Assembly: GCA_964468895.1 (NCBI GenBank)
Contig: CAYXWT010000004.1
Span: 1-31,478 of the forward strand
Length of the DNA: 31,478 nucleotides
Reading direction: 5' to 3'
Source: an uncultured archaeon
Lineage (GTDB): Archaea; Iainarchaeota; Iainarchaeia; Iainarchaeales; CSSED10-239
The notes beneath the pieces are model-generated. The model was not told the origin of the DNA. It saw only the letters and a program-made list of their open reading frames with translations, and did not search any database. Made by a program: the position numbers and the translations under genes. Numbering within the stretch: position 1 is the first letter of the stretch; each line of letters starts with the position of its first letter. Shown here one piece after another: positions 1,602 through 28,080 of this stretch.

Positions 1602-2405
1602 ATGAAATTTAAAAGGTCTTCAACAAGAAATAATTCTAAAGGTGAGGTTTCTAAAACCAATTATAAAATATCATCAAACCTTTTTACTACTAGAATAGGT
1701 TCTTTTTTTAAGAGTAGTAGAAGAGGGGTAGTTTATACAAAAAGAGCTAAAGAAATAATGCATTCTTTTAAAGATAAGCACTTATTTAAAGAAATTCTAG
1801 AACTTTCTAAAAAAATTGGTGAACATAAAGAATTTGATCCTATAATAACTATTAAAAATTCAAATTATATTTTAACTGCTAAAAGATTTGATGGAGTAAA
1901 TATTTTTAATTGTAGAAAAACATATACTATTGAATTTAGAAATGGTAATAAAGATAAACTTTTTATTAAAGATGGAAATATAGCTCATACTATTTTTGAA
2001 CATCTGGCTTTGAATTATATGAGTAAATTAGGATTTAATATTGTTGAACCAATTTTCAGTTACACTTCAAAGTCTCACAATTATATTGTTTATGATTATA
2101 GTCATCTATCTACACTTGACGCTTTAGAGAGAAAATTAAGTCCTAGTAAATTTAGGTCACTTTCTAAAGAAGTTTTAGAAATATCTAAAAGATTGTATAA
2201 TAATAGATATAGATTAAGAACAGAAATTATAAAAGAAATGCCTTTTATTAAAAGTTTTAAGATTGCAGAGATAAAGAATACAAATGTGTTTTATGATAAA
2301 ATAAATGATAAATTGTATTTTTTTGATCCAGTTTTAGATATAATAATTGATGAAAATAAATTGCCAGATAAAAAATATATTTCTAATTTACCAGATAAAA
2401 AATAA
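1602..2405 (+). CDS. family B paralog K1: atypical protein-kinase-like fold protein, function unknown
   Basis: Paralog of 2448-3251 and 14024-14746. Shared blocks are 'LFIKDG' (beta3 Lys-like), 'FEHLALNY..LG.NI..P' (alphaC-like), 'NYIVYDY..LSTL' (hinge-like), 'EIKNTNVFY' at the DxxxxN catalytic-loop position (here E for D) and 'LYFFDP' (DFG-like). Confidence 0.45.
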   Translation: MKFKRSSTRNNSKGEVSKTNYKISSNLFTTRIGSFFKSSRRGVVYTKRAKEIMHSFKDKHLFKEILELSKKIGEHKEFDPIITIKNSNYILTAKRFDGVNIFNCRKTYTIEFRNGNKDKLFIKDGNIAHTIFEHLALNYMSKLGFNIVEPIFSYTSKSHNYIVYDYSHLSTLDALERKLSPSKFRSLSKEVLEISKRLYNNRYRLRTEIIKEMPFIKSFKIAEIKNTNVFYDKINDKLYFFDPVLDIIIDENKLPDKKYISNLPDKK

Positions 2406-2447
2406 TTATTTAATTAATTTTAAAATTACTATTAAAAATAGATATTT

Positions 2448-3251
2448 ATGAGTTTTTCAAAAATAAAAACAATTTCTAGAATAAAAAAAAAAGAACCAAA
2501 TAAAATTAAGTATAGTATTCATAGAGATATTCTTTGTCAAAAAGTATACAAGTTTTCTGGTTCTAAAGCAAGAGCTCTTATATATACAGAAAAAGCCAAA
2601 AAAATTTTATTTTCTTTAAGAAAAGAAAAGTTGTTTGAAAAAGTTTTAAGTTTATCTAAAAAGCTAGATGAAATATTAAAAAACACTGCTGAAATTAAGT
2701 TTAAAAATAATACTTATGTTCTAACTGCAAGATCACATTCTGCTAATAGTTATTTTTCTTGTAGAAAAACATTTATGATAGAGTTTTTAAAAGGACAAAA
2801 AGGAAAATCTTTTATAAAAGATGGAGATTTAAGAAGTTATGCTGTTTTTGAACATTTAGCATTAAATTATTTAGAAATGTTAGGACTTAATATAATTCAT
2901 CCTGTTTTGAGTTATACATCTGTATCTAAAAATTATATTGTTTATGATTTCACTAACTTATCAACTTTACTTTCTTTAATTGGAAAAATTTCACCAGAAA
3001 AATATAAATCTCTTATTAAAACTGTTAGTGAAATCAAAAATGCATTATATTTAGATGAAAATCAACTTAGAATAAAAAAAAAAGTTATCAAAAAATTTCC
3101 ATTTGTGGAGGATTTTATAATTAAAGATATAAATAGTAAAAATGTATTTTATGATCTAAAAAATGATAAATTATATTTTTTTGATCTTATTTTACGTGTA
3201 AAAATTGACGAAAGTAAGTTGCCAGATAAAAAATATATTTCTAATTCTTAA
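2448..3251 (+). CDS. family B paralog K2: atypical protein-kinase-like fold protein, function unknown
   Basis: Tandem with K1 after a 42-nt spacer. Same blocks as K1, with 'DINSKN' (DxxxxN) followed by 'LYFFD'. C-terminal 'KLPDKKYISN' is shared with K1. Confidence 0.45.
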   Translation: MSFSKIKTISRIKKKEPNKIKYSIHRDILCQKVYKFSGSKARALIYTEKAKKILFSLRKEKLFEKVLSLSKKLDEILKNTAEIKFKNNTYVLTARSHSANSYFSCRKTFMIEFLKGQKGKSFIKDGDLRSYAVFEHLALNYLEMLGLNIIHPVLSYTSVSKNYIVYDFTNLSTLLSLIGKISPEKYKSLIKTVSEIKNALYLDENQLRIKKKVIKKFPFVEDFIIKDINSKNVFYDLKNDKLYFFDLILRVKIDESKLPDKKYISNS

Positions 3252-5064: not shown

Positions 5065-5262
5065 ATGAATGGTGTTGTAAAATTCTATAACTTTAAGAAA
5101 AGATTTGGATTTATTACTGGCGAAGACGGTAAAGATTATTTCTTTCATCAAACAGGTATCGTTGTAGACTTTCAAAGAGAAATCAGAGATAATGTTCAAG
5201 TAATTTTTGACGTTGTTGAAGATGACAAAGGACCAAAAGCAGTTAATGTTAATAAAATGTAA
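5065..5262 (+). CDS. cold-shock-domain (CspA-like) nucleic-acid-binding protein
   Basis: 65 aa. 'GVVKFYNFKKRFGFI' (RNP1-like) and 'DYFFHQTGI' (RNP2-like). GGAG RBS about 11 nt upstream. Confidence 0.85.
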   Translation: MNGVVKFYNFKKRFGFITGEDGKDYFFHQTGIVVDFQREIRDNVQVIFDVVEDDKGPKAVNVNKM

Positions 5263-5809: not shown

Positions 5810-6166
5810 TTGGATATAAGATATATAATGATAAAAGTAGAGTTAGAGTTTAATAAATTCTCTAGAAATACAATAGAAGTTTTTATTAAAAGCAAAATAT
5901 TAACTATTAAGTTTTGGGGTACAAAAGAAAATAAAGAACTATATGTTTTTTGTAAAAAAACACAATATATTTTTTTAGAACCTTTTGTTAATATGTATTA
6001 TAATAAAAATCCAAAAACAGTGGTTATTAGAAAGTCTTTTTTATTTTCCTTTTTAGAAAATAAAAATACTTATTTTAAGTTAAAAAATAGTGATATAAAA
6101 TCATTATTAGATAGTTTGGAAGAACTAAATTTTGAAGATTTCAAAAGATATCTACATAATTTTTAA
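5810..6166 (+). CDS. hypothetical protein
   Basis: ORF track, which uses a TTG start. An in-frame ATG lies at 5828. No motif recognised. Confidence 0.35.
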   Translation: MDIRYIMIKVELEFNKFSRNTIEVFIKSKILTIKFWGTKENKELYVFCKKTQYIFLEPFVNMYYNKNPKTVVIRKSFLFSFLENKNTYFKLKNSDIKSLLDSLEELNFEDFKRYLHNF

Positions 6167-7021
6167 TTATTTAATATTTTTTAAGAAATTAATCTGGGAT
6201 ATAATGATAGACGTTGCACAAGCAATGTTTAATGAACTTACAGATTTAGAAGACATAGGTATCTTAACTAATTTATTACTAATTTCTTTATAATTTCTAC
6301 TAAGTCCAATAGTTTCATTTCCAATTAAAACAATAGTTGGTTTATTATAATCTATATCTTGAATATATTCTTTAGCTTTAGCAGAAGTACCTATAATTTG
6401 TAAATCTTTTTGATTTTTTTTAAAATTTTCATAAAAGTCAACAAATTCTTTATAAGAATTTATTTTAAAAATAGAAGTTGCAAAAACCCCACCTAAACTG
6501 CTCCTAATAGTTTGTGGATCATACATGTCTACACTATAGTTGCCACTAATTATGATAGCATCAACTTCAAAAGCATTACAGCTTCTAATAATTGAACCTA
6601 AATTACCTTTATTAGATATATTGTCTAATAAAACTATTAATGAATCTGTTTTGTTTTTAATAGTCTTATATAAATCATTTATATTTTTGTCTTCAACTTT
6701 AATTATAGCAATAAGTTCAGAGGTATTTTCTTTATCACTTAGTTCTTTAAGAAGTTGAGGAGTAATATGAAAATGTTTACAGTTTGTTTTTTTAATAAAT
6801 TCTTTAGCCCAAATAGAAAGATTATTTTTATTATAAATTAAAGAGTCTATTTTGTAATTATTATTAGAAAGAACTTTAATAGCTTTTATACTTTCAACAA
6901 AGATTTCTTTATTTTTATTTCTTTTTTGTCTACTATTTTTTAAAGACAAAAAATGTAAATAATCATTATCTTTAGAATTAATATTATATATTTTCTTCAT
7001 AATATCAATATTAAGTGTCAT
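6167..7021 (-). CDS. SpoU/TrmH-family RNA 2'-O-methyltransferase
   Basis: SPOUT motifs in order: 'NKGNLGSIIRSCNAFEVD', 'IVLIGNETIGLS' and 'IPMSSKSVSSLNIACATSIII'. An N-terminal substrate-binding extension precedes them. Confidence 0.8.
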   Translation of the reverse strand: MTLNIDIMKKIYNINSKDNDYLHFLSLKNSRQKRNKNKEIFVESIKAIKVLSNNNYKIDSLIYNKNNLSIWAKEFIKKTNCKHFHITPQLLKELSDKENTSELIAIIKVEDKNINDLYKTIKNKTDSLIVLLDNISNKGNLGSIIRSCNAFEVDAIIISGNYSVDMYDPQTIRSSLGGVFATSIFKINSYKEFVDFYENFKKNQKDLQIIGTSAKAKEYIQDIDYNKPTIVLIGNETIGLSRNYKEISNKLVKIPMSSKSVSSLNIACATSIIISQINFLKNIK

Positions 7022-9339: not shown

Positions 9340-9936
9340 GTGATTAATATTATTGAAATTTATTTAAAACATAATTTTGAGATGTTTTGTGGTTATATTA
9401 AAGGATTAATAATAAAGATAAATAATCCTAAAAGATATTTTTATCTTGAAACAATTAGAGGTAATTATAGATTATTAAATAGTAATAGAAAAAAGCTGTT
9501 AAATAAATTTAAACTTTTATTACAGGAACAGAATATTAGCTATTATTTAGTTATGTCTAGAATAAAGACTATTGGAAGTGTAGATAGAAAAGAAAGATAT
9601 AATAAAACTCAGAATACAAAGAATAATCATTATGATTCAATAGGTGTGAGAATTGTAACTTATAGTAAAAAAGATTGTTATAAAGTTATGAATCTATTAT
9701 TAAAGAATTTTAGATTGGAAAAAGAAAAAAATATTATTAACCCTGAAGATTTTTTTAAAAATAAAAAGTTAATGAGAAATACCACTAGTATTTCTAAGAA
9801 TCAAATTTTTATGAAAATAAATTATAATAGCTGTTCTGTTCATTTTATACTAATTCCAAAATATAATCTTAAATTTATTTCAAAAGAAAGACAAAAATAT
9901 ATTAATTATATAAATAATATTATTAATAAAACCTAA
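9340..9936 (+). CDS. divergent, probably truncated RelA/SpoT-like (small alarmone synthetase-fold) nucleotidyltransferase
   Basis: 'SRIKTIGSVDRKER' matches the RvKs.eSi.rK motif, 'YDSIGVRIVTYSKKDCYKVMNLL' matches D.xGxRii...dcY.v, and 'YNSCSVHFIL' matches GYrSlHliv. The downstream ExQxRT motif is absent. GTG start in the ORF track. Confidence 0.35.
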   Translation: MINIIEIYLKHNFEMFCGYIKGLIIKINNPKRYFYLETIRGNYRLLNSNRKKLLNKFKLLLQEQNISYYLVMSRIKTIGSVDRKERYNKTQNTKNNHYDSIGVRIVTYSKKDCYKVMNLLLKNFRLEKEKNIINPEDFFKNKKLMRNTTSISKNQIFMKINYNSCSVHFILIPKYNLKFISKERQKYINYINNIINKT

Positions 9937-11998: not shown

Positions 11999-12059
11999 GT
12001 CAATCTATTGACTGGTTTTATGGTCAAACCGGCTAACGGGTTGCCCGGTCCATATGTTT
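11999..12059 (+). promoter_or_regulatory. GC-enriched structured leader ending in the conserved 11-mer TCCATATGTTT, upstream of ATPase copy 1
   Basis: Palindrome gtcaat-ct-attgac (11999-12012), ggttt/aaacc stem (12014-12030), accgg/ccggt stem (12028-12049) and the 11-mer at 12049-12059. The same 11-mer sits at the same 38-nt distance from the ATG of ATPase copy 2. Confidence 0.4.
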
Positions 12060-13394
12060 AAATATATTTCTATTGCTATATTTCTTATGGATTATACTAA
12101 GATATTAAAAATTTGGAATCCCTGGTGGATTTCAAAGAAAGTAGATTTAAATAAATTTAAAATTGAACGAAATAAAACTAAAGAAATAATTAATTTTTTA
12201 AAAATTAGAGAAATTATAGTTTTAAAAGGTATAAGACGTTCAGGAAAATCAACTATTATTTATCAAATTATAAATTATCTTATAAATCAGAAAAAAATAA
12301 ATCCCAAAAACATCTTTTATTTTAATTTTGATCAACCTTTAAAAAGTAATGAATTAGAAGTTATGGATGATCTTTTAAATAATTATTTAGAAATTAATAA
12401 TCCAAAAGGAAAAATATATGTTTTTTTAGATGAAATTCAAAATGTAGAATTATGGGAAAGGTGGATTAAAAAAGAATATGATTTAAAAGAAAAAAGTATT
12501 AAATTTATTATAACTGGATCTAATAATTCTTTACTTTCAAATAAAATTTCTACTGCTTTAACTGGAAGAATTATTTCTATAAATATATATCCTTTATCTT
12601 TTTTAGAATATTTATTATTTAAGAATTATAAATATAAAGATCTTGATATAGATGAAAATAAAATAAAATTTCATTTTAATAAATTTTTGAAAAAAGGTGG
12701 ATTTCCAGAAGTAGTTTTAGAAAAAGATGATTATATTAATAAGAAAAGATTATTAGAATATTTTGAAAATATTATTTTAAGAGATATAATTACAATTAAA
12801 GATGTAAATGAAACTAAAAAATTAAAAGAACTTGCTCATTATCTAATTACAAATATTTCTTCACAAATAACTTATAGTAAATTAGGAAAAGTATTTGGTC
12901 TTAATAAAGCTACTGTAAAAGAATATGTTTCTTATATTGATCAATCTTTTTTAATTTTTGAGGTTAATTTTTATTCTTATTCTTTAAAAAAAAGTGTAAG
13001 TATACAAAAACCTAAAAAAATATATTGTATTGATAATGGTTTGAGAGAAGCTGTTTCTTTTAAATTTTGGGATGATAATTCAAAACTTATTGAAAATTTA
13101 GTTTTTGTAGATCTTTTAAGAAGAGGATTAGATGTTTATTATTGGTTTTCTAAAAATGAAATTGATTTTGTAGTTTCAAAAAATAATAGACTTATTTTGA
13201 TTAATGTATGTTATTCCAATGAAATTCCTGAAAGAGAAATTAAGGGTTTTAAAGAATTTGAAAAAGAATATAAGAACATAGATCAAAAAATAATAATTAC
13301 TAAAAATTTAGAAAAAGAAGAAGATGGTGTTTATTATATTCCTATATACAAATGGATTTTAAAAGATAATTTGTTATTTTATAAAGAGATTTAG
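12054..13394 (+). CDS. AAA+ ATPase, COG1373/DUF4143 family (AAA_14 plus DUF4143 plus C-terminal nuclease-like domain)
   Basis: Walker A 'GIRRSGKST' and Walker B 'VFLDEIQ'. 'GGFPE', 'RDI' and 'YCIDNG' blocks are shared with 26739-27998. The likely true start is the in-frame ATG at 12087 ('MDYTKILKIWNPWW'). Confidence 0.8.
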   Translation: MFKYISIAIFLMDYTKILKIWNPWWISKKVDLNKFKIERNKTKEIINFLKIREIIVLKGIRRSGKSTIIYQIINYLINQKKINPKNIFYFNFDQPLKSNELEVMDDLLNNYLEINNPKGKIYVFLDEIQNVELWERWIKKEYDLKEKSIKFIITGSNNSLLSNKISTALTGRIISINIYPLSFLEYLLFKNYKYKDLDIDENKIKFHFNKFLKKGGFPEVVLEKDDYINKKRLLEYFENIILRDIITIKDVNETKKLKELAHYLITNISSQITYSKLGKVFGLNKATVKEYVSYIDQSFLIFEVNFYSYSLKKSVSIQKPKKIYCIDNGLREAVSFKFWDDNSKLIENLVFVDLLRRGLDVYYWFSKNEIDFVVSKNNRLILINVCYSNEIPEREIKGFKEFEKEYKNIDQKIIITKNLEKEEDGVYYIPIYKWILKDNLLFYKEI

Positions 13395-13795
13395 CAACAA
13401 CAATAACTGCAGGAGCAAGACTATTTTTAACTATTGCTCAAACAATAGCCAAAAATGAAAAATGTCCTCATCATTATATGGATACAGATAGTATTTTTGT
13501 AGATACAAAAATATCTAGTAAAGTTATTGATTATTTTAAAAATCTAAGTCCTTATTCAAATAATATTCCTTTACTTAAAAAAGATAAAGAAAATGTTTAT
13601 TTTTATGTGATTTGTAGTAAAAGATATTGTCTTTATAGATTAGATAAAAATAAAAGAGATATTATTGATTATAAATTACATGGATTAGGTCATTTAATTA
13701 ATCCTTGGAAAAATAAAATAAAGAATTTGCAAATCCTTTCGTATATTAACAATAATATTATCGTCCATATTAATATTGTGGAGAGTAATTGTTAA
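13385..13795 (+). pseudogene. C-terminal remnant of a family-B DNA polymerase
   Basis: The frame opens at 13385, overlapping the ATPase stop. It reads 'ATTITAGARLFL..(18 aa)..HHYMDTDSIFV', i.e. the ITxxGR block followed by motif C YxDTDS. 'CSKRYCLY' sits at the KKRY/KxY motif position. The exonuclease domain and motifs A and B are missing. Confidence 0.6.
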
Positions 13796-13857: not shown

Positions 13858-13930
13858 AGCCTCTAGTGGGATTTGAACCCACGACCTACAGTTTACAAGA
13901 CTGTTGCTCTAGCCACTGAGCTATAGAGGC
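13858..13930 (-). tRNA. tRNA-Thr (anticodon UGU), 73 nt, no encoded CCA
   Basis: Reverse complement folds as a cloverleaf: acceptor GCCTCTA/TAGAGGC, D-arm GCTC-AGTGGCTA-GAGC, anticodon arm ACAGT-CTTGTAA-ACTGT, variable AGGTC, T-arm GTGGG-TTCAAAT-CCCAC, discriminator T. Confidence 0.92.
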
Positions 13931-14023: not shown

Positions 14024-14746
14024 TTAAGAAATATACCAAGGATCAATAATGTATATTTCTTTTGTTTTAGTATTATAAAGTAAGTTGTGAGGAAATAAAT
14101 CTTGTATATTTGTTGGACCAGTAACATTAGTATTTTTAGATTTTATATATTCTTGATTATTTAAACCTTTATCTATTATTGATTCTATTATTTCTCTTTT
14201 TCTTGAAATGCTAATACTTTCTTTTAGAGTTAGTTTGTTATTATCTGCTAATTCTTTAATTGTTTGAAGATTAGTAAAATCATATACTATATATGCTTTT
14301 TTTGATTTAATATTTAAATATGATAGATGAGCATCAATAATATTAATTCCTAAACTTTTTAGTATTTTTATGGCTTTCATTTCATAAAAACCATTTAAAT
14401 GAGCTTTAAGTTTGTTATCAAAAGTAGAACATTTACTATTAGGTGTTGGTTCTTCATTTATTTCTTTTACAAAATATTTTTTATTATTTTTATTAATTTT
14501 AATTATATACATTTCATTAGTGCTTGTTTTGATCTTATTACTTACTTTTTCTATTGTAAATCTACCTTTTGGGTCTTTATATTTGGGAAGTTTTTTTTTA
14601 TTCATTTCACGAAAAGCTTTAAGTAAACCTTTATTTTCTGAAAGTATTTTTCGTCCTTTTGGAGAGTAAGCTAGTTTATGATTTTCTGTTTCTAGGAACT
14701 TTGATTTTGTAATACTATATCTTTTCATATTTATATCTAAATACAA
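14024..14746 (-). CDS. family B paralog K3: atypical protein-kinase-like fold protein with the most canonical catalytic motifs
   Basis: 'KKYFVKEI' (VAIK-like Lys), 'YEMKAIKILKSLGINI' (alphaC-like), 'AYIVYDFTNLQTI' (hinge), 'DLFPHNLLY' (DxxxxN, about 14084-14101) and 'IYIIDPW' (metal-binding Asp, about 14042-14044). This arrangement resembles RIO/Bud32/APH/Kdo-kinase-type atypical kinases. Confidence 0.5.
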   Translation of the reverse strand: MYLDINMKRYSITKSKFLETENHKLAYSPKGRKILSENKGLLKAFREMNKKKLPKYKDPKGRFTIEKVSNKIKTSTNEMYIIKINKNNKKYFVKEINEEPTPNSKCSTFDNKLKAHLNGFYEMKAIKILKSLGINIIDAHLSYLNIKSKKAYIVYDFTNLQTIKELADNNKLTLKESISISRKREIIESIIDKGLNNQEYIKSKNTNVTGPTNIQDLFPHNLLYNTKTKEIYIIDPWYIS

Positions 14747-14967: not shown

Positions 14968-15744
14968 ATGTTAATAAGAAAAAAAAATTTAAAAAAATTT
15001 GGGCAGAAAAGAGAAGTCAATGAATCTGTAAATTATATTTTAAGTAGTAAAAAAAAAGGATTTGAAAGTTGGGCTTATAAAGGAGATAGATATAGATATA
15101 AAGTTGTTTTTGAATTACAACTTAAAAAGAAGCCACTTAAATATTTGCTTGATAATAATATAAAAAACCCTGAAATTATGATGTTAGGGCCATCAACTGG
15201 AGAATATATTCTAGAATTTAAAAAAAGACTTTTAGAAAATAAAATTAAACCAATAATTGATTGCTTTTCTTTAAAAAATGAATTAAATAAAAATGTAGAA
15301 AAGGAAGTTAGATTAAATCTATTTGGTAAAGGAGCTTTTGAAAAATTAAATACAAAAGCAAATAATCTTGATTTAAAAGAAATTCAAAGAAATCTTATAG
15401 ATAAATATAATTTAATTATAGCACCAATGAGTATAGGTGTTCATACAAAGTATCCTATAAATGCTTTATTTACTTCTGCATTAATGCTTAGAAAAGGTGG
15501 TAAAGCATATGTTGAAATTCCTGCAATAGATAGAGATTATTTAGAGTATATGAAATCGCAAAAACAGTCACGAAGTAAATATGATAAACAGTTATTTTAT
15601 TCAAAATTACAAGCAACTAAAGTAGAAAAAATTTTTGATAGGTTTGTTAATTCTTATAACCCTAAATTAAAATTTAAATTAGAAGCTGTTGATACTTTTT
15701 ATCATGAAAAATATGTGTTTATAGAAATTACTAGAATACAATAA
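14968..15744 (+). CDS. family A paralog P1: Rossmann/SAM-methyltransferase-like protein
   Basis: 'LKKFGQKRE', 'FESWAYKGDRYRYK', 'IMMLGPSTGE', 'PIIDCFSL', 'YNLIIAPMSIGVHTKYPINALFTSALMLRKGGKAYVEI', 'NPKLKFKL' and terminal 'FIEITRIQ'. Confidence 0.55.
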   Translation: MLIRKKNLKKFGQKREVNESVNYILSSKKKGFESWAYKGDRYRYKVVFELQLKKKPLKYLLDNNIKNPEIMMLGPSTGEYILEFKKRLLENKIKPIIDCFSLKNELNKNVEKEVRLNLFGKGAFEKLNTKANNLDLKEIQRNLIDKYNLIIAPMSIGVHTKYPINALFTSALMLRKGGKAYVEIPAIDRDYLEYMKSQKQSRSKYDKQLFYSKLQATKVEKIFDRFVNSYNPKLKFKLEAVDTFYHEKYVFIEITRIQ

Positions 15745-15767: not shown

Positions 15768-16532
15768 TTGAGATTTATGCCTGTTACTAAAAAAATTGGA
15801 AAAAAAAGAACTGCAATTAAAAATTGTAATATTGTAAAAGCAAGTTCTAAAGAATCTTGGCCTTGTAATGGACAAATGGAAAGATTTAAAGAGATATTTT
15901 TTGTAAATTTATATAAAAAACCTTTAAATTTTTTACTAAAACTAAAAAAGCAGAATCCAAATGTTATGTTCCTTGGTTCTGGAAGAGGAGGAACTATTTC
16001 TGAATTTCTAAAATATACTTCTAAATTTAAAATAAAGCCATTAGTAGATACTTTTTCTTTAACTAAAAATCTATCTAAAAGTGTTTTGTCAAAAGTTAGA
16101 AAAGATTATTCAGCAAATATAGGTTTTGAAGAACTAAATACAAAAAACAGTAAATATAAGTTTTTAGAAAATAAATATGATCTTATAGTAGGTGCTATGA
16201 GTGTGGGATATCATACAAAGTATCCAGCAAATGCACTTTTTACTTCTGCGCTAATGTTAAAAAAAGGTGGAAAGGCATATATTGAAATAGATGATTTAAA
16301 ACAATTTTTACAATTAAATAAAACTCAATTTTTTAAGTTTCTTAAAAATTCTAATATTAATAAAGAAGAAAAATATTCTCAAAAACAGATTTTATTTTTA
16401 GAGAATGTATTTAATAGAATGGTAAATTCTTATGATTCTAAACTAGAATTTTCTTTTAACTTTATTAAATATAAAAATAAAATGTTTTCTAGTGTTGATT
16501 CTGTATTTGTAGAAATAGAAAGAATTAAATAA
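15768..16532 (+). CDS. family A paralog P2
   Basis: 'VMFLGSGRGGT', 'VDTFSLTK', 'YDLIVGAMSVGYHTKYPANALFTSALMLKKGGKAYIEI' and terminal 'FVEIERIK'. The probable start is ATG 15777 ('MPVTKK'); the ORF track uses TTG 15768. Confidence 0.55.
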   Translation: MRFMPVTKKIGKKRTAIKNCNIVKASSKESWPCNGQMERFKEIFFVNLYKKPLNFLLKLKKQNPNVMFLGSGRGGTISEFLKYTSKFKIKPLVDTFSLTKNLSKSVLSKVRKDYSANIGFEELNTKNSKYKFLENKYDLIVGAMSVGYHTKYPANALFTSALMLKKGGKAYIEIDDLKQFLQLNKTQFFKFLKNSNINKEEKYSQKQILFLENVFNRMVNSYDSKLEFSFNFIKYKNKMFSSVDSVFVEIERIK

Positions 16533-17317: not shown

Positions 17318-18103
17318 GTGATGATTATTATGCCTGTTTTGAAAAAATTTGGAAAAAAAAGAGAAACTAACTTAAAAGTTAAAGAGTGGCTTAGTATAGG
17401 TTGTGAAAAATGGCGTTGTAATGGACTAAAGGAAAGATATAAACAGATTTCTGAAGCACTTGGTGGTATTCATGTTTATTTTTTAGTTTGTCGTCGAAAA
17501 TCACATCCTATTGTGATGTTTTTAGGTGCTGGAGTAGGAGAAACTATTTCTGAATTTAAAAAACATCTTTTGAAACATAAGATACATCCAACTGTAGATG
17601 TTTTTTCTTTAACTAAAGATTTATCTTCAGAGGTTAATTCTAAAACAAGACGTGATTATTCTAATAATTTGCCTTTTGAACATTTAAATATGAAAAATAG
17701 TGCTTTTAAAAATTTAGAAAATAAATATGATTTAGTTATAGGGGCCATGAGTGTTGGTGTACACACTAAATATCCTGCAAACTCTTTGTTTACTTCTGCT
17801 TTAATGCTTCAAAAAGGTGGTAGGGCATATATTGAAGTTGTAGACTTTTTAAAAAAGAATGGTGGTATATCTACTATAAAAGAACATAAAAAACTTTTAG
17901 AAAGAAATAAATCTTTTAGTTTTAGTAAGTATGAACGTTATAGTCTTTCATATATGAAACAAATTTTGGTTTTTAAAAAGGTTTTTTTAAGAATGATTGA
18001 AGTATATAATCCTAAATTAGAATTCTCTATTAAAATGATTGATAATAATTTGAATCATTTTACTTGTCAAATGAATTTTATAGAAGTAGAAAGAATTAAA
18101 TAA
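17318..18103 (+). CDS. family A paralog P4
   Basis: 'LKKFGKKRE', 'VMFLGAGVGET', 'VDVFSLTK', 'YDLVIGAMSVGVHTKYPANSLFTSALMLQKGGRAYIEV', 'NPKLEFSI' and 'FIEVERIK'. The probable start is ATG 17330 ('MPVLKKFG'). Confidence 0.55.
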   Translation: MMIIMPVLKKFGKKRETNLKVKEWLSIGCEKWRCNGLKERYKQISEALGGIHVYFLVCRRKSHPIVMFLGAGVGETISEFKKHLLKHKIHPTVDVFSLTKDLSSEVNSKTRRDYSNNLPFEHLNMKNSAFKNLENKYDLVIGAMSVGVHTKYPANSLFTSALMLQKGGRAYIEVVDFLKKNGGISTIKEHKKLLERNKSFSFSKYERYSLSYMKQILVFKKVFLRMIEVYNPKLEFSIKMIDNNLNHFTCQMNFIEVERIK

Positions 18104-18126: not shown

Positions 18127-18915
18127 ATGTTTATGTCTCTTTTAAGAAATAAAAAAGTTTTGCTAAAACCAATTTTAAAAAAATTTGGTAAATTAAGAAA
18201 ACCATCTTTATCATTAGAGGAATATTTAGTTTCTAAAGCTAAGGAATCTTGGGGTTATAATGGAACTAAAGATAGATTTAAAACTATATTTTTTGAACAT
18301 TTACAAAAAAAACCTTTTCGTTTTTTAATTAAATTAAGAAAAGAAAAACCAAACGTTATGTTTTTAGGTGCTGGTAAAGGAGAAGCTTTATATCAATTTA
18401 TAAAATTTAGTTCTAAATTGAAATTAAATCCAATAGTAGATGTTTTTTCCTTTACTAAAAGCTTAACTAAAGATGTAAAATCTTTAGTTAATAAAGATTA
18501 TTCTTCTAGAACTCTTTTTGAACATTTAAATGTAAAGAAAAGTAAATTTAAGTTTTTAGAAAATAGATATGATCTTGTTGTAGGTGCTATGAGTGTTGGT
18601 GAACACACATATTATCCAGCAAATGCTATTTTTACATCTTCTTTAATGTTGTTAAAAAATGGAAAGGCTTATATTGAGGTTGAAGATTTAAGAGATCGTT
18701 TTACTGTTAAAGAGTATGATGCATATATATCGTATTTAAAAAAATTTCCTAAACAACATCATGATGAATTATATTATCAAAAACAAATAGATAATTTAAA
18801 AATTATATTTAAGAGAATGGTTTATTCTTATAATCCAAAATTAGAATTTTCTTTTAAAATCATTAAAAATCCCAAAACTGCTATTAATTTTGTAGAAATA
18901 GAAAGAATTAAATAA
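18127..18915 (+). CDS. family A paralog P5
   Basis: 'ILKKFGKLRK', 'ESWGYNGTKDRFK', 'VMFLGAGKGE', 'VDVFSFTK', 'YDLVVGAMSVGEHTYYPANAIFTSSLMLLKNGKAYIEV', 'NPKLEFSF' and 'FVEIERIK'. Confidence 0.55.
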   Translation: MFMSLLRNKKVLLKPILKKFGKLRKPSLSLEEYLVSKAKESWGYNGTKDRFKTIFFEHLQKKPFRFLIKLRKEKPNVMFLGAGKGEALYQFIKFSSKLKLNPIVDVFSFTKSLTKDVKSLVNKDYSSRTLFEHLNVKKSKFKFLENRYDLVVGAMSVGEHTYYPANAIFTSSLMLLKNGKAYIEVEDLRDRFTVKEYDAYISYLKKFPKQHHDELYYQKQIDNLKIIFKRMVYSYNPKLEFSFKIIKNPKTAINFVEIERIK

Positions 18916-20217: not shown

Positions 20218-20937
20218 ATGATTAAAAAAAAATTAAAAGTCAAATCTAAAGTTACAAAATCTACTGTTGTAGAATTGAAAGATGTTACTAAGACTTATCT
20301 TATGGGTGAAGTTGCAGTTCATGCTTTAAATGGTGTTAATTTAAAGATAAAACAAGGTGATTTTGTATCTATTATGGGTCCAAGTGGATCTGGAAAATCT
20401 ACTATGATGCATATTGTTGGTGCTTTAGATTTACCAAGTACTGGTCAAACTTTTATTAAAGGAATAGATTTGAGTACTTTAAGTGAAAATGAACTTTCTC
20501 AAATAAGAGGAAAAACAATTGGTTTTGTTTTTCAAGAATTTAATTTAATTCCTACTCTTACTGCTCTAGAAAATGTAAGATTACCTATTTTGTTTCAAGA
20601 TATAGAAGAAGATAGAACTGATTGTTGTATTGATTTATTAAAATTAGTAGGTCTAGGTGATAGAGTTGATCATAAACCTAGTGAACTTAGTGGTGGGCAA
20701 CAACAAAGGGTTGCTATTGCAAGAGCTTTGGCTAATGATCCTGAAATAATTCTTGCTGATGAACCTACTGGTGCACTTGATTCTAAATCTGGTATTGAAA
20801 TACTTGATTTACTTGAAGATTTAAATAGAAAAGGTAAAACTGTTATTATTATTACTCATGATAAATCTTTAACTAAATATACTAAAAGAAATATTTCTTT
20901 AAAAGATGGTAAAGTTATTAAAGATATTTCAAAATAA
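20218..20937 (+). CDS. ABC transporter ATP-binding protein (MacB/LolD-type)
   Basis: Walker A 'GPSGSGKST', Q-loop 'FVFQEFNL', signature 'LSGGQQQRVAIARAL', Walker B 'IILADEPTGALD' and H-loop 'ITHD'. Confidence 0.92.
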   Translation: MIKKKLKVKSKVTKSTVVELKDVTKTYLMGEVAVHALNGVNLKIKQGDFVSIMGPSGSGKSTMMHIVGALDLPSTGQTFIKGIDLSTLSENELSQIRGKTIGFVFQEFNLIPTLTALENVRLPILFQDIEEDRTDCCIDLLKLVGLGDRVDHKPSELSGGQQQRVAIARALANDPEIILADEPTGALDSKSGIEILDLLEDLNRKGKTVIIITHDKSLTKYTKRNISLKDGKVIKDISK

Positions 20938-20955
20938 AAAGTTTGTAAGATATTT

Positions 20956-22149
20956 ATGAAAGGAATGTTATCTTTTATTTTTAAAAATATAAAACGAAGA
21001 AAACTTCGAAGCTGGCTTACAATTATTGGTATAATTGTAGGTGTTTTTGCAATAGTTTCGCTAATGTCTTTATCTCAAAGTTTAGAAAATAAAATAAGTT
21101 CTAAATTTGATCAATTAGGTGCAAGAAAAATAGAAATTGTTTCTAAATATAGTTCTTATGGAACTAGTTCTTCAAGCCAAGCACTTAGTGAAGATGATAT
21201 TGCTGTTCTTGAAAAAATTCCAGATCTTGAAAAAGTAATTGGTTCTATTAAAAGTAGTGTTTCTATTGAATATAATAGAATAAATAAACATCTTACTTTA
21301 ACTGGTTATGATTGTGATAATATTGAAGATATGTTTTATCAAGAAAATTTAGAAATATTAAAAGGAAAACAAATAGTTTCTGAAAAATCTAAAGAAATTG
21401 TTATAGGTTATGGTTTTTATGGTGATTATGATAATGTTTTTGGTAAAAAACTAGATGTTGGAGATTCTTTAGAAATTAATAGTCATTCTTATAAAATTGT
21501 TGGTATTTTAGAAGATACTGGTGGACAAGGTAATTTTAATATTTATATTTCTATGACTAATATTAGAGATATAACTGGTGCAGAAGATAAAGTTGTTGAT
21601 AAAATATATGCAATTGTTAAAGAAAATAAAGTTCTTGAAGAAGTTTCTGAAAGAATACAAAATAAACTAGAAAGTTTTAGAGATTCTGATGATTTTAGTA
21701 TTACAACTCCTCAAAAGACTGCAGAAAAAAGAAAAGAAACTTTAAAAGTAGTTTCAATAGTAGTAATTGGAATTGCTGCAATTTCTTTATTAGTTGGTGG
21801 TATTGGAATTCTTAATTCTATGTATACTTCAGTAGTTGAAAGAAAAAAAGAAATTGGAGTTATGAAAGCAATTGGTGCTAAAAGAAGTGATATTTTAAAA
21901 CTTTTTTTATTAGAATCTGGTATTATTGGTTTTGTAGGTGGTCTAATAGGCTCTATTGTTGGTTTTGTAGTTGCATTTTTAGTTAGTTTTGTTGCAACAT
22001 TATTACAATTTGAAATTGTTTTTTCTTTAAGTTTTGATATTTTGTTAATAGCACTTGGTTTTTCATTTGTTGTTGGAATTATATCTGGCTTTTGGCCAGC
22101 TTATAAAGCTTCAAAACAAGAACCAGTTGAATGTTTAAGAGAAGAATAA
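20956..22149 (+). CDS. ABC transporter permease, FtsX/MacB-type (MacB_PCD plus FtsX domains)
   Basis: N-terminal TM 'LRSWLTIIGIIVGVFAIVSL', a large extracytoplasmic domain, and a C-terminal FtsX block 'GGIGILNSMYTSVVERKKEIGVMKAIGAKRSDI'. Confidence 0.85.
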   Translation: MKGMLSFIFKNIKRRKLRSWLTIIGIIVGVFAIVSLMSLSQSLENKISSKFDQLGARKIEIVSKYSSYGTSSSSQALSEDDIAVLEKIPDLEKVIGSIKSSVSIEYNRINKHLTLTGYDCDNIEDMFYQENLEILKGKQIVSEKSKEIVIGYGFYGDYDNVFGKKLDVGDSLEINSHSYKIVGILEDTGGQGNFNIYISMTNIRDITGAEDKVVDKIYAIVKENKVLEEVSERIQNKLESFRDSDDFSITTPQKTAEKRKETLKVVSIVVIGIAAISLLVGGIGILNSMYTSVVERKKEIGVMKAIGAKRSDILKLFLLESGIIGFVGGLIGSIVGFVVAFLVSFVATLLQFEIVFSLSFDILLIALGFSFVVGIISGFWPAYKASKQEPVECLREE

Positions 22150-22253
22150 AGTTACATTTTATAAATAAAATGTTCTTTATATTTGTTGTATAATATATTT
22201 AAAATAAATTATAAAAATTAAAATAAAATTTAGTATTTAGAGGTGGAATTAAA

Positions 22254-23525
22254 ATGAATATAAAAAATTTAAAAACAATATTTAGTATAGTACTAATATT
22301 AGGATTATTTGCATTTTCTGGTCTTGTTAATGCTCAACAAGATTATGATGTGATAAATTTAGATGCTAGTAATTATAATTATGATCCAGCGCCAATTACT
22401 CCTGGTGATGAGTTTGAATTGTGGATACAATTAACAAATAATAGTAATAATGCTGCTGAAAATATAGATTTTCTTTTAGAATTAGAATATCCTTTTAGTT
22501 TAGCAGATTATGATGAATTAAATGGAAATATAAGTTATATTGCACCATATCAAACTAAAATTTTAAAATATAATTTAAAATCTGATTTTTTAGTAAATTC
22601 AGATACTTACACTATTAAATTTAAATATAAAAGAAGTGGAGTAGATGTATATAATGTTGAAGAATATAATATAGATATTACTTCTCAAAATGCAATTATA
22701 GATATTATATCTTCAGATATAGAAAAAGTAGATATTGGAAAGTCTTCTAATATAAATTTAAATTTAAAAAATTTAAGTTTACAAAATGCAAAAGATGTTT
22801 TTGTAACTTTAAATAACTCTAGTGATGATAAAATAAAAGTTTTAAATTTAACTACTAAATACATTGCAAAACTAAATGCTGGACAAGAAATTAATTTGCA
22901 ATATAGTGTTTTAGCAGATAGAACTATTGAAAATAAATCTTACTCTCTTCCTATTACTATTTCATATTCAGATAGCCAAGGAGATTATAATATTTCTAGA
23001 ACAGTAGGTTTAGAGATTATTGGAAATCCAGAAGTTTTACTTAATATTATAAGTATAGGAGAGAATTATAAATTATATACTAATGATGTTCAAGAAATTG
23101 AATTTGAAATCTATAATGTTGGAAATATTGATGCTGAATCTGTTTATGTTGAAGCAAATGGTGATTTTTTAGTAGCTTCAAGTAAATATTTTGTAGGTTC
23201 TATTGAAAAAGATAATTATGATAGTGTAGATTTAGAATTAAATATAAAAGATATGCCCTCTGGAACTTATAATTTAGAAGTTATAATAAATTATAAGGAC
23301 GGAGATTTAATTGAACAAAAAATAACTCAAAATATACCAATAGAAGTTGTTAATAAATCTAAAGGTGGAAATACCTTAGTAAGTGTTGTAAGTACTATTG
23401 GATATATTATTGCAGTAATATTTGGTTTGTCTTTGATAATTATTATTATAAGATGGTTACTAAAAATACTTGTATTTCCAGCTTTTGGAATATCTAGTAT
23501 TTCAAAAAACAAAAAAAAGAAATAA
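22254..23525 (+). CDS. secreted, C-terminally anchored surface protein with repeated beta-sandwich-like (CARDB/COG1361-like) modules
   Basis: Strong GAGGTGG RBS. Signal-like N-terminus 'IFSIVLILGLFAFSGLVNAQ', repeated '..N.GN..A..V.V..' style segments, a C-terminal hydrophobic helix and a poly-Lys tail. The domain call is tentative. Confidence 0.4.
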   Translation: MNIKNLKTIFSIVLILGLFAFSGLVNAQQDYDVINLDASNYNYDPAPITPGDEFELWIQLTNNSNNAAENIDFLLELEYPFSLADYDELNGNISYIAPYQTKILKYNLKSDFLVNSDTYTIKFKYKRSGVDVYNVEEYNIDITSQNAIIDIISSDIEKVDIGKSSNINLNLKNLSLQNAKDVFVTLNNSSDDKIKVLNLTTKYIAKLNAGQEINLQYSVLADRTIENKSYSLPITISYSDSQGDYNISRTVGLEIIGNPEVLLNIISIGENYKLYTNDVQEIEFEIYNVGNIDAESVYVEANGDFLVASSKYFVGSIEKDNYDSVDLELNIKDMPSGTYNLEVIINYKDGDLIEQKITQNIPIEVVNKSKGGNTLVSVVSTIGYIIAVIFGLSLIIIIIRWLLKILVFPAFGISSISKNKKKK

Positions 23526-23591
23526 ATTATTTATTTTTCTTTTTTTTAAAAACATAATTTTTTTAGTTAGAACTTTTAAAAAGATATTTTT

Positions 23592-24818
23592 ATGCATAAA
23601 TTAAAATTTACTAATTTGGTAAATCTTACTATAAAAAATATATTTAGAAGAAAAGTAAGATCTACTCTTACTATTCTTTCTGTAATTATAGGTATTGCAG
23701 CAGTAATTTCTTTGATATTATTAAGTGATGGTTTATTTAATGCTATTGAAGGGCAGTTTGATGTTTTAGGTTCAAATACTATATTTGTATTTCCTGTACA
23801 TTTTCAACAAGGTAATCCTGTAGAAATAGTTTCAAGATTATCTGTTGAAGATAAATTAACTTTAAAAGATGTTGAAGCTCTTAGAAAAATAAAAAATGTA
23901 AAAGAGGTATATTCTTTTACATATAAAACTAGTGAGTTTGAATATAAATATGAAACACAATATGCTTTAACTGTTGTTGCTCCTGCTGATGAATGTGATG
24001 GTTTATTTGAAATTATGCAATTAGATTTTTCTTCTGGAGAAGGATTTAATGGAAAAACTGGTAAGAAAGTTATAATTGGATCATATTTTGCAAATGATCT
24101 TTTTGATCATAAAATTAGTGTTGGTAATAATGTAAAATTAAATAATATTGATTTTAAAGTAATTGGAATACTTGAACCTGTTGGTAATGTAGATGATGAT
24201 AGTACTGTTTATATTACAAAAGAAACTGCAGATAAAGTACTTGTTTTGGACTCAGAAGTTACTCAAATAATTGCCAAATCTGCTGGTGATGCTGATGTTA
24301 GTGATGTTAAAGATGATATAGTTGATAGACTTGAAAAAACACATAGTGAAGATGCATTTATGGTATATACTTCTCTTCAAATGTTAGAAATGATTCAACA
24401 GATTTTAATGGTTCTTAAAATTATTTTGATATCTATTGCTTTAATTTCTCTAGTAGTTGGTTCTATTGGAGTTATGAATTCTATATTTACTTCAGTTTTA
24501 GAAAGAATTGGAGAGATTGGTATTTTAAAATCCATTGGTGCTAAGATATATGATATTGTATTTTTATTTGTTTTAGAGTCTGTAATTTTATCTATTATTG
24601 GAGGATTAATTGGTTTGGTTTTAGGTATTGGTATAGCTAAATTAGTTGAACTTTATATTATTAGTTTGAATTTTGATATGTTACATATTATAGTTAATGC
24701 TAATATTATTATTCTGGCAATTTTTATATCTATATTGGTTGGTTTTATAGCTGGTATATTACCTGCAATTAGCGCTGCAAGATTAAAACCTGTAGATGCA
24801 CTTAGAAAAAATATTTAA
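23592..24818 (+). CDS. second FtsX/MacB-type ABC permease
   Basis: Same architecture as 20956-22149: 'VRSTLTILSVIIGIAAVISL', then 'GSIGVMNSIFTSVLERIGEIGILKSIGAKIYDI', ending '..RLKPVDALR'. Confidence 0.85.
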   Translation: MHKLKFTNLVNLTIKNIFRRKVRSTLTILSVIIGIAAVISLILLSDGLFNAIEGQFDVLGSNTIFVFPVHFQQGNPVEIVSRLSVEDKLTLKDVEALRKIKNVKEVYSFTYKTSEFEYKYETQYALTVVAPADECDGLFEIMQLDFSSGEGFNGKTGKKVIIGSYFANDLFDHKISVGNNVKLNNIDFKVIGILEPVGNVDDDSTVYITKETADKVLVLDSEVTQIIAKSAGDADVSDVKDDIVDRLEKTHSEDAFMVYTSLQMLEMIQQILMVLKIILISIALISLVVGSIGVMNSIFTSVLERIGEIGILKSIGAKIYDIVFLFVLESVILSIIGGLIGLVLGIGIAKLVELYIISLNFDMLHIIVNANIIILAIFISILVGFIAGILPAISAARLKPVDALRKNI

Positions 24819-26738: not shown

Positions 26739-27998
26739 ATGAATAAAGAAGTTTTAAGAAAAACAATACTTAATCATTATGAGATGTTTACAAATAAGGA
26801 TATAGGTGTAGTAAGAGATTATCTTACTGAATTTAAAAAAGAAATAGATAATCCTTTAACAATTGTTATTACAGGTCATCGAAGAGTTGGAAAATCTACG
26901 CTTTTATTACAAATTGCAAAGAAATATTATAAAAATAATTTTTATTATTTAGATTTTTCTGATCCTTCTCTTAAAAATCTAGATGTGTCTGATTATGAAC
27001 CATTATATGAATTATTTTTAAAAGAATTTGGTTTAAAAAAAGCTTTTTTCTTTGATGAGATACAAGGTAAACCTGAGTGGAATTCTTTTGTTAATATTCT
27101 TAGAGAAAGAAAACATAAATGTTTTGTAACAGGATCTAATTCTGAAATGTTATCTTCAGAAATATCTACTTACTTAACAGGAAGGCATAAAGATAAAATT
27201 ATATTTCCTTTTTCTTTTAAAGAGTTTTTAAATTATAAAACAATAGATACTAATTTATTAACTACAACTAATACCTCAAAAATTCTTAAATATTTTGATA
27301 TTTATTTAGAAGAAGGTGGCTTTCCTGAAAATATAATATTTAATCAACCTGAAATATTAAAAGATATTTATAAAGATATTATAACTAGGGATATTATAAG
27401 TAGGTGGAATATTCAAAATATTTCAGATATAGAGGATTTAGCATATTATTTATTATCAAATACTACTAATGAGTTTACTTATAGTTCTCTTAATAAATAT
27501 CTTAAAATAAAAGATCCTAAAACTATTCAAAAATATGTTAAATATATTTGTAAAACTTATTTTTTGTTTGAATTATCTCAATTTGATTATTCACTTAAAA
27601 AACAAAGAAAAAAGAAAAAGAAAATTTATTGTATTGATAATGGTTTTTTAACTAATGTTGGATATGCTTTTTCTATTGGTAAGAGCAGATACTTAGAAAA
27701 TTTAATATTTATTGAATTAAAAAGAAGAAATAAAGAAGTATATTTCTTTAGAAATGCAAAAAATCAAGAATGTGACTTTTTGGTTGTAGATAAAAAGAAA
27801 GTAATGTCTGCAATTCAAGTTTGTTATGATTTAAAAAATATAGACACTGAAGAAAGAGAAATAAATGGGTTGATTTTTGCACTAAAAGAATATAGACTTA
27901 ATACAGGAATAATAATAACTTATAATACTTCTAAAACAATTAAAAAAGATAAATTTAATATTAAATTTATACCTGCATATAAGTGGTTATTAGAATAA
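26739..27998 (+). CDS. AAA+ ATPase, COG1373/DUF4143 family (second full copy)
   Basis: Walker A 'GHRRVGKST' and Walker B 'FFFDEIQ'. 'GGFPE', 'TRDI', 'IYCIDNG' and C-terminal 'ECDFLV...IQVCYDL..EREINGL' are present. Confidence 0.8.
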   Translation: MNKEVLRKTILNHYEMFTNKDIGVVRDYLTEFKKEIDNPLTIVITGHRRVGKSTLLLQIAKKYYKNNFYYLDFSDPSLKNLDVSDYEPLYELFLKEFGLKKAFFFDEIQGKPEWNSFVNILRERKHKCFVTGSNSEMLSSEISTYLTGRHKDKIIFPFSFKEFLNYKTIDTNLLTTTNTSKILKYFDIYLEEGGFPENIIFNQPEILKDIYKDIITRDIISRWNIQNISDIEDLAYYLLSNTTNEFTYSSLNKYLKIKDPKTIQKYVKYICKTYFLFELSQFDYSLKKQRKKKKKIYCIDNGFLTNVGYAFSIGKSRYLENLIFIELKRRNKEVYFFRNAKNQECDFLVVDKKKVMSAIQVCYDLKNIDTEEREINGLIFALKEYRLNTGIIITYNTSKTIKKDKFNIKFIPAYKWLLE

Positions 27999-28043: not shown

Positions 28044-28080
28044 TGCACAAATTTTGTTTATTTGTGCACTTGAAGTGCAC
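28044..28080. repeat. two overlapping perfect palindromes at the truncation point of ATPase copy 3
   Basis: tgcacaaat (28044-28052) pairs with atttgtgca (28060-28068). gtgcactt (28064-28071) pairs with aagtgcac (28073-28080). Confidence 0.7.

Follow-up and report, generated by a model that had tools for sequence, protein, structure and literature searches.

Members of the protein-kinase-like (PKL) superfamily are characterized by a short list of key residues, which in PKA numbering are K72, E91, D166, N171 and D184 (Kannan et al. 2007, PMC1821047), and all 20 PKL families of the microbial kinome survey retain subdomains I to IX, with about 100 residues past the DFG motif, starting at D220 of the F-helix (PMC1821047); there are PKL families from which one or another key residue has been lost (Kannan et al., PMC1821047). 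Bud32/PRPK keeps alphaF, alphaG and alphaH past the DFG motif and replaces the activation loop by a 7-residue linker (PMC7864929), and Rio1 keeps alphaE, alphaF and alphaG (PMC5374425). The main activity of RIO and Bud32/PRPK proteins is that of an ATPase or autokinase (PMC7864929, PMC5374425), and APH and choline kinases bind their substrates through an insert between subdomains VIa and VIb together with C-terminal helices (PMC1821047). In this work, a stretch of 31,478 nucleotides from an uncultured archaeon of the Iainarchaeota lineage CSSED10-239 (assembly GCA_964468895.1, contig CAYXWT010000004.1, positions 1 to 31,478 of the forward strand; hereafter, the window) was analyzed. It carries three related genes, named K1, K2 and K3, whose predicted products are, judged by their alignments and model, members of the PKL superfamily at the fold level that lie outside every known family and show an unprecedented truncation after the metal-binding Asp. 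A literature search for a kinase-like family in DPANN archaea found no paper describing one.

A preliminary description of this DNA had proposed a triplicated family, formed by a tandem pair and a third copy, and pairwise comparisons agreed with it. K1 and K2, encoded on the same (+) strand and separated by 42 nt, shared 48% identity over 253 residues (E 1e-79), K2 and K3 shared 32% over 134 residues (E 1e-9), and K1 and K3 shared 28% (E 2e-6). The family hidden Markov model (HMM) matched exactly these three copies across the window, where the GC content is ~20% throughout; the match to K1 had an E-value of 1.8e-50, and its score was identical in four independent assemblies (L001-L004). By these comparisons, K1 and K2 are tandem paralogues and K3 is a distant third copy. 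Every motif quoted in the preliminary description was located in the proteins: MKFKRSSTRNNSK, LFIKDG, FEHLALNY, NYIVYDY, EIKNTN and YFFDP in K1; MSFSKIKTISRIKKKEPNK, SFIKDG, FEHLALNY, NYIVYDF, DINSKN and YFFD in K2; and YFVKE, YEMKAIKILKSLGINI, AYIVYDF, DLFPHNLLY and IYIIDPW in K3. The interval that had been given for the third copy, 14024-14746 (-), does correspond to a mechanically called open reading frame (ORF) that opens at a TTG codon (14746), but its start is more likely the ATG at 14728 (ATG AAA AGA TAT in the window), because K3 read from there begins MKRYSIT... and its homologues P0003, P0004 and P0005 open with MK(I/K)Y.

In order to establish how widely these proteins are distributed, several databases were searched. 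Neither Pfam nor NCBIfam gave any match to K1-K3, even at E <= 10, and K2 alone matched PDB sequences only at E > 0.8. A word-index search of 5.8 billion proteins returned K2 and K1 only when K2 was the query, and four relatives when K3 was used, one of which carries the JGI name 'serine/threonine protein kinase'; with a 42-sequence profile, at least seven proteins were recovered. When 1.84 billion cluster representatives were searched exhaustively by HMMER with a three-copy profile, 55 matches were obtained at E <= 1e-3, 22 of them at E <= 1e-10, with lengths of 67-307 aa (mostly 205-307 aa). The names attached to them were few, namely 'hypothetical protein' from metagenome-assembled genomes (MAGs) labeled 'archaeon' or 'Candidatus Diapherotrites archaeon'. 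Scans of 185,579 GTDB species genomes picked up one MAG (A5 scan), and the A2 scan of GTDB genomes gave no match; the genome to which the window belongs is consequently absent from the GTDB representatives. The GC content of family loci ranged from 19 to 31%, and related loci had archaeal genes as neighbors (TBP, L21e, AglB/STT3, FEN1 and deoxyhypusine synthase); with the names above, these features make it probable that the window is itself of DPANN origin. As far as these sequences indicate, the family is real, small, rare and archaeal, and of DPANN type wherever a taxon name exists. Since the 55 clusters keep the catalytic residues at 20-30% overall identity, they represent real genes under constraint.

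Conservation was evaluated on an alignment of 42 family members (20-30% overall identity), to which all counts given here refer, using K2 numbering. Besides the initiator Met, the most conserved columns were K124, D246, Y46, E135 and D227, in this order (Table 1), followed by N232, G146 and Y166 (36/42 each). The Lys, DxxxxN element and Asp that had been proposed from the sequence alone, and the Glu of the alphaC-like segment, are thus among the most conserved columns, and they also fall in register with the equivalent residues of CK2, KSR and PKA. The family profile 'isDinseNvFiDlktkklYifDp' aligned in register with HRDVKPHN...DWG of CK2 alpha' (E 0.12), D246 being placed on the Asp of DWG; the three-copy profile 'KDiKSKNVlYD' aligned to the KSR segment HKDLKSKNVFYD (HKDLKSKN; E 0.15); and an hhalign comparison of the family with PKA, whose sequence was verified, paired E135 with E91, IVYDF with the MVMEY hinge, and D227/N232 with D166/N171 (89 columns, E 0.016, probability 2.8%). 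The arrangement D-x4-N followed by 14 residues to the Asp, as in the CK2 alignment, recurred in the alignments with CK2, KSR and PKA, and homologue P0007 has DLKSHN. Matches to PDB sequences were confined to the catalytic-loop region (E 0.12-0.4). The case for a kinase relationship lies in the mutual agreement of these marginal alignments and in their accord with the conservation pattern and the structural model. All five PKL key residues (K72, E91, D166, N171 and D184) thus have a counterpart in the family, K1 having Glu at the D166 position.

When the alignment used for AlphaFold2 held three sequences, a poor model of K2 was obtained (predicted local distance difference test, pLDDT, 53), and the 42-member alignment gave a model with pLDDT 84.9 and a predicted template-modeling score (pTM) of 0.84. 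The latter begins with an N-terminal module (strands 20-25 and 43-47, helices 48-56 and 62-75), continues with strands 82-86, 90-96, 107-113 and 119-125, helix 132-144, strands 152-157 and 162-167 and the long helices 183-202 and 204-216, and closes with strand 220-226, a loop, strands 233-236 and 241-244, two short strands and the terminus. In this model, the order of elements after the module is that of a kinase N-lobe, alphaC, beta4-beta5, hinge, alphaD/alphaE, beta6, catalytic loop, beta7, beta8 and DFG. K124 lies in the fourth strand, equivalent to beta3, E135 one turn into the alphaC-like helix, D227 right after strand 220-226, N232 before strand 233-236, and D246 after strand 241-244, and the whole K/E/D/N/D set would converge on one nucleotide cleft. 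The 50 best PDB matches of this model in Foldseek were all kinase-fold proteins (probability 0.8-1.0, mostly >= 0.96), including CDKL5, ABL1/2, ASK1, NEK1, CDC7, MEK1, Lyn and Hck, as well as APH(3'), APH(2'') and the ThurKC kinase domain, and the named top matches in BFVD were viral Ser/Thr kinases (best E 3.8e-4, probability 1.0). Even the three-sequence model (pLDDT 53) matched kinase-fold proteins only. Structure comparison therefore supports the kinase-fold reading of the preliminary description, and the non-kinase architecture that would have contradicted it did not emerge from the Foldseek search of the pLDDT 84.9 model; a PKL fold is very probable for the whole family.

A feature that the preliminary description did not remark is that the chains end straight after the metal-binding Asp. 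A median of 10.5 residues follows D246 (range 4-31), and K3 terminates as IYIIDPWYIS, with 5 residues and the stop codon past that Asp. Because the chain ends so early, the activation segment, the P+1 loop and alphaF to alphaI are absent, and the region of subdomains VIII-IX is lacking in the 42 members. The possibility that the missing C-lobe is encoded by a neighboring ORF was ruled out, as the downstream genes (HAD, tRNA-Thr, thymidine kinase or HIT) are all unrelated to it. At the opposite end, 49-111 residues (median 79.5) precede beta1. The N-terminal tails are rich in K/R and poor in acidic residues across the family, with 28.8% K+R in the first 30 residues vs. 18.4% elsewhere, and that of K2 is predicted to be largely disordered over residues 1-20. 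The preliminary description had noticed these basic N-termini, and that part stands, but it overlooked the structured and conserved module behind the tail, with its near-invariant Tyr46; this module was modeled with pLDDT values of 79-90 (residues 20-30 and 40-75) and carries the motif L-x-Y-[ST]-x-x-A-K...NPGLLK.

Table 1. Location in the window of K1, K2 and K3 and of their predicted functional elements (counts are family members with the residue, out of 42).
Feature	Position	Strand	Remarks
K1	1602..2405	+	267 aa ORF; member of the putative minimal kinase-like family
K2	2448..3251	+	267 aa ORF; full K/E/D/N/D set; protein used for modeling
K3	14024..14728	-	234 aa; different subfamily; likely ATG start at 14728
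K2 basic N-terminal tail, residues 1-20	2448..2507	+	pLDDT 42 and 61 in the first two 10-residue blocks
K2 N-terminal module, residues ~20-75	2505..2672	+	two strands, two to three helices
K2 Tyr46 (family-specific, near-invariant)	codon 2583-2585	+	40/42
beta3 Lys (PKA K72 equivalent)	K2 Lys124 2817..2819; K1 K123 1968-1970	+	42/42; strand 119-125
K3 beta3 Lys equivalent, K88	14465-14467	-	codon position
alphaC Glu (PKA E91 equivalent)	K2 Glu135 2850..2852; K1 E133 1998-2000	+	39/42; helix 132-144
K3 alphaC Glu equivalent, E116	14381-14383	-	codon position
K2 catalytic loop, D227-I-N-S-K-N232 (DxxxxN)	3126..3143	+	D 38/42, N 36/42
K3 catalytic loop, D210-L-F-P-H-N215	14084-14101	-	equivalent of K2 D227-N232
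K1 catalytic loop, E223-I-K-N-T-N228	2268..2285	+	Glu (GAG) instead of catalytic Asp
DFG-equivalent metal-binding Asp in YFFD	K2 Asp246 3183..3185; K1 D242 2325-2327	+	41/42
K3 metal-binding Asp equivalent, D229	14042-14044	-	codon position

Compared with the described PKL systems, the K family shows partial likeness to several of them. Like RIO1/RIO2 and Bud32/PRPK, which are small archaeal/eukaryotic PKL proteins of comparable size (230-290 aa), it combines the K/E/D/N/D set with a reduced C-lobe and lacks an activation loop. However, the few residues past its last Asp leave no room for the helices that Bud32/PRPK and Rio1 retain there, and it differs from both in having its own N-terminal module with the near-invariant Tyr, in being multi-copy and in evolving fast. 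No RIO1 (PF01163) match was found at E <= 1 among the 42 members, nor for K1-K3 at E <= 10. RIO proteins are further marked by an alphaR helix, a flexible loop and an STGKEA-type phosphate loop, and the family alignment shows no such loop motif. No Pkinase/Bud32 model matched, residues for alphaF-alphaH are missing, and neither Kae1 nor Cgi121 was present in ~14 distinct family gene contexts. Kdo kinase/WaaP (PF06293), APH, choline and fructosamine kinases are, like the K proteins, minimal PKL cores without an activation loop, and some K genes stand in an operon-like arrangement with metabolic enzymes, in which they resemble small-molecule PKL kinases. Sub-threshold Pfam matches among the 42 members were to Kdo (2/42, best E 0.028), Kinase-PolyVal, HipA_C and Fructosamin_kin (one member, E 0.018); the Kdo/WaaP gathering threshold was reached by none of them, and K1-K3 gave no match to that model. 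The substrate-binding insert and the C-terminal helices of APH and choline kinases are absent in the K family, which lacks that C-terminal region altogether; no APH (PF01636) was found among the listed Pfam matches, and APH structures superposed poorly in Foldseek (rmsd, root-mean-square deviation, 13-16 A). The best structural matches were to Hanks kinases (CK2, KSR, PKA, CDKL5, ABL), and the catalytic loop isDinseNvFiD...YifDp resembles the ...LIDWG segment of CK2, yet the K proteins differ from these enzymes in lacking the Gly-rich loop, the His/Arg before the catalytic Asp, the activation segment, the APE motif, Asp220 of alphaF and alphaG-alphaI, and no Pkinase match of the eukaryotic protein kinase (ePK) type (PF00069/PF07714) was obtained for K1-K3 or the 42 members. 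The catalytic spacing had been likened earlier to that of RIO/Bud32, aminoglycoside/choline and Kdo kinases; the PKL fold and residues behind this comparison hold, but the threshold of no single family was attained. Because the RIO, Bud32/ePK, Kdo/WaaP and APH/ChoK thresholds failed and subdomains VIII-IX are absent, the family was placed in the PKL superfamily at the fold level only.

The genomic surroundings of the K genes were then compared among relatives. Synteny with the window along SdpI-MBL-K-HAD-ICMT-...-CSD-...-SpoU was found in a related genome (L026), which has a single K gene (6001-6789) where the window has K1-K2. These three K proteins are mutually 47-48% identical, vs. 71-97% for the flanking proteins, so that the pace of evolution of the family is far above that of its neighbors, with the catalytic set retained. 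Tandem amplification was recurrent (2+1 copies in the window, 3-4 in L005, and 3 each in L012 and L020). In the window, an MBL-fold hydrolase lies upstream of K1, a convergent HAD hydrolase follows K2, and a tRNA-Thr gene is found downstream of K3 (13858-13930, -); MBL and HAD hydrolases belong to enzyme types whose substrates are often phosphoesters. In one clade (clade A, L021-L025), the stop codon of K overlaps the start codon of a thymidine kinase (TK) gene (ATGA) in four loci, and the TK-coupled K proteins have diverged to 46-67% identity. The K gene is thereby translationally coupled to a thymidine kinase of TK1 type (e.g. L024, 5962-7337, with K at 5962-6771), and DUF4013, DUF2666 and DUF6498 genes lie on the flanks of K; a fused phosphopantetheine adenylyltransferase-like/dephospho-CoA kinase protein is likewise encoded in L024 (4769-5905, -). 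A Diapherotrites-like clade shows the order dUTPase-K-HIT-(K)-Memo/AMMECR1 in three genomes, with K overlapping HIT. In these genomes (L009, L012 and L014, e.g. L014 128-2146), K-HIT-K' with overlapping stop/start codons precedes a fused Memo/AMMECR1 gene, the K proteins are ~50% identical among genomes, and genes for an Orn/Arg decarboxylase and an arginase are located 5-6 kb upstream, echoing the arrangement in L019 and L020, which is deoxyhypusine synthase-K-Orn/Arg decarboxylase-K-K. The neighbors in two lineages hint at pyrimidine deoxynucleotide metabolism, and the contexts lean weakly towards small-molecule or nucleotide-linked chemistry.

Based on these results, we regard the K proteins as probable mini-kinases of ~230-290 aa, that is, a PKL-fold family of Mg-ATP phosphotransferases or ATPases, of which K2 and K3 are likely to be catalytically competent, while catalysis by K1, with Glu in place of the Asp, is probably attenuated. 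In the mechanism proposed, Mg-ATP would occupy the cleft, where Lys124, held by Glu135, would contact the alpha and beta phosphates, and Asn232 and Asp246 would hold the Mg ions. Asp227 would act as the catalytic base, the gamma-phosphate being passed to a hydroxyl acceptor or to water. Behind the disordered basic tail, the N-terminal module (residues ~20-75, with Tyr46) probably packs on the remnant C-lobe, where it could replace the scaffold, form the acceptor site, or both.

Several observations weigh against this interpretation. All sequence-level links to kinases have E-values of 0.016-0.4 and are marginal when taken alone, and no kinase-family sequence model was significant for K1-K3 or the 42 members. 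The Foldseek E-values against PDB were modest, from 2.7e-3 upward, and the template-modeling scores (TM-scores) were just 0.27-0.40, which are low because only 140-200 residues superpose. A Gly-rich loop is missing, as the preliminary description had also stated: no column within beta1-beta3 has Gly in more than 15/42 members and all columns stay below 40%, K1/K2 having S/N-C-R-K-T where most members have G-x-N-T-N. The family thus has no counterpart of the loop around G52 nor of the His/Tyr at the H164 position; a His or Arg was not found before the catalytic Asp, and an Ile stands two residues before D227 in 29/42 members. AlphaF is the normal scaffold of the kinase core, and its absence raises doubt on the stability or activity of the isolated core. 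Finally, gene contexts vary by lineage and each is kept within one syntenic clade only, so that they provide hints on the substrate and not proof.

Other explanations were weighed against the same evidence. The one that survives best, which we nonetheless hold to be rather unlikely, is that the K proteins are switches resembling RIO and Bud32, in which ATP binding and hydrolysis, perhaps by way of autophosphorylation, drives a conformational step on an RNA or ribonucleoprotein held by the basic tail, no separate substrate being phosphorylated. The K proteins do lack the activation loop and the C-lobe parts for substrate docking, as RIO and Bud32/PRPK do, their tails are K/R-rich, acid-poor and predicted to be disordered, and Tyr46 (40/42) could be an autophosphorylation site. 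Nevertheless, neither a RIO nor a Bud32 model matches any of the 42 members, and Kae1, KEOPS or ribosome-biogenesis genes are not among the neighbors. Housekeeping switches are usually single-copy and slow-evolving, while the K genes occur in several copies and diverge at about twice the pace of the genes around them. Moreover, Lys-rich tails are common in proteomes of 20% GC.

Some or all of the copies, above all K1, for which the preliminary description had suggested it, might instead be pseudokinases or nucleotide-binding scaffolds that are non-catalytic and, for instance, regulate an active paralogue. The GAG codon for Glu in K1, one transversion away from GAT, is present in four assemblies and puts Glu in the place of the catalytic Asp, the Gly-rich loop is absent, and the C-lobe is extremely shortened. 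Tandem pairs of an active and an inactive kinase are a known arrangement. Contrary to what would be expected of pseudokinases, however, the conservation of the catalytic Asp, the Asn and the metal-binding Asp ranks among the highest of all columns in the family, and K1 itself retains the Lys, Glu, Asn and metal-binding Asp; a Glu, which recurs at this position in 3/42 members, can still serve as base. We give this explanation a low probability.

An equally low probability is given to the proposal that these are kinases of conflict or host interaction in episymbiotic DPANN archaea, with host, virus or self proteins as targets and the same kinase chemistry as in the mini-kinase interpretation. 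The divergence of the K proteins relative to their flanking genes between two genomes (47-48% vs. 71-97% identity) and their repeated tandem amplification would fit it, as would the abundance of accessory-type genes in the window (Fic, RelA/SpoT-like, AAA_14/DUF4143 and other paralogue arrays), yet such fast evolution might just reflect relaxed constraint on a small protein. Among the proteins compared with PADLOC, K3 gave the sole match, to PD-T4-6, a predicted kinase defense protein, which speaks for this proposal and for a kinase relationship; this match was weak (E 0.001, 16 bits, 68 residues), four other tested proteins had none, and no PADLOC match reaches significance. The sequences show no evident signal peptide or transmembrane segment, and the neighbors found elsewhere are housekeeping genes (TK, dUTPase, HIT and deoxyhypusine synthase). 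No family member was found in viral contigs and matches to PHROGs were at noise level; an origin from a phage or a defense system was consequently rejected for lack of evidence. Lastly, that these proteins are not kinases at all, their likeness being a chance motif resemblance in a Lys/Asn/Ile-rich, low-complexity proteome or an AlphaFold2/Foldseek artifact, is very improbable in spite of the marginal sequence matches, low TM-scores and extremely biased composition (20% GC), given that 50 of the top 50 PDB matches are kinase-fold, that two independent models give kinase-fold matches and the named BFVD tops are viral kinases, that the columns of strongest conservation include precisely the five canonical catalytic positions, that register and spacing repeat in independent alignments, and that the order of secondary structure is that of a kinase core.

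In addition to the K genes, other genes of the window were inspected. Four paralogues of 254-262 aa are encoded beside K3 (14968-15744, 15768-16532, 17318-18103 and 18127-18915, all +), arranged as two tandem pairs with 42% and 49% identity within pairs and sharing the motifs KKFGKKR, MSVG-HTKYPANALFTSALML-KGGKAYIE and SYNPKLEFS; one copy showed a weak match to Methyltransf_23 only. This array is another lineage-specific amplified family. By the family HMM, none of its members, nor any of the unknown proteins of 247-307 aa in the window, is a further remote copy of K. An ORF of 105 aa next to the tRNA-Thr gene (13478-13795, +) opens with 'MDTDSIFVD' and contains 'SKRYCLY', which led to the suspicion of motif C/KKRY of a family-B polymerase; its identification as a PolB remnant marking an integrated element was not supported by searches of Pfam and PDB sequences, in which only an eL38 match at noise level (E 0.16) was obtained. 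Accessory-type genes, all on the (+) strand, were found at 9340-9936, 28606-29562, 12054-13394, 26739-27998 and 28064-28399; their products include a protein with a small synthetase domain of RelA/SpoT-like type, one of the Fic/DOC kind, a pair of AAA_14/DUF4143 ATPases and a fragment of DUF4143. A cold-shock domain protein (5065-5262, +; CSD E 7e-17) is 97% identical to its counterpart in the syntenic genome L026. The region 20218-24818 (+) encodes an ABC ATPase and, after it, two permease paralogues of the MacB/FtsX type (397 and 408 aa), with a CARDB/DUF7490-like protein between them (22254-23525).

AlphaF and the ~100 residues past the DFG motif are regarded as the organizing scaffold of PKL enzymes, and a natural family with the K/E/D/N/D set and a tail of 4-31 residues would define the minimal viable kinase core, would reveal an alternative way of stabilizing it, and would offer a compact template for engineering. 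A bolder version, possible albeit doubtful, is that a free-standing core of ~170 residues works without alphaF and the rest of the C-lobe, propped up by an unrelated N-terminal module whose Tyr takes the scaffolding role of alphaF/D220 or forms the acceptor site, and that it was amplified and rapidly diversified in DPANN archaea either for nucleotide salvage, for instance as a partner of TK and dUTPase that replaces a missing nucleotide kinase, or for host/virus conflict. If this were true, the K proteins would represent the smallest known architecture of the kinase superfamily as well as a new enzyme family. As the family has neither a Pfam nor an NCBIfam entry and its members are 'hypothetical' nearly everywhere, a family model would be useful for annotation. 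The tiny genomes of DPANN archaea rarely retain paralogues without reason, and to these organisms the K genes add a lineage-specific, multi-copy and fast-evolving family of putative enzymes, for which concrete candidate substrates are suggested by their operon-like linkage, in other lineages, with genes for thymidine kinase, dUTPase/HIT and polyamine metabolism.

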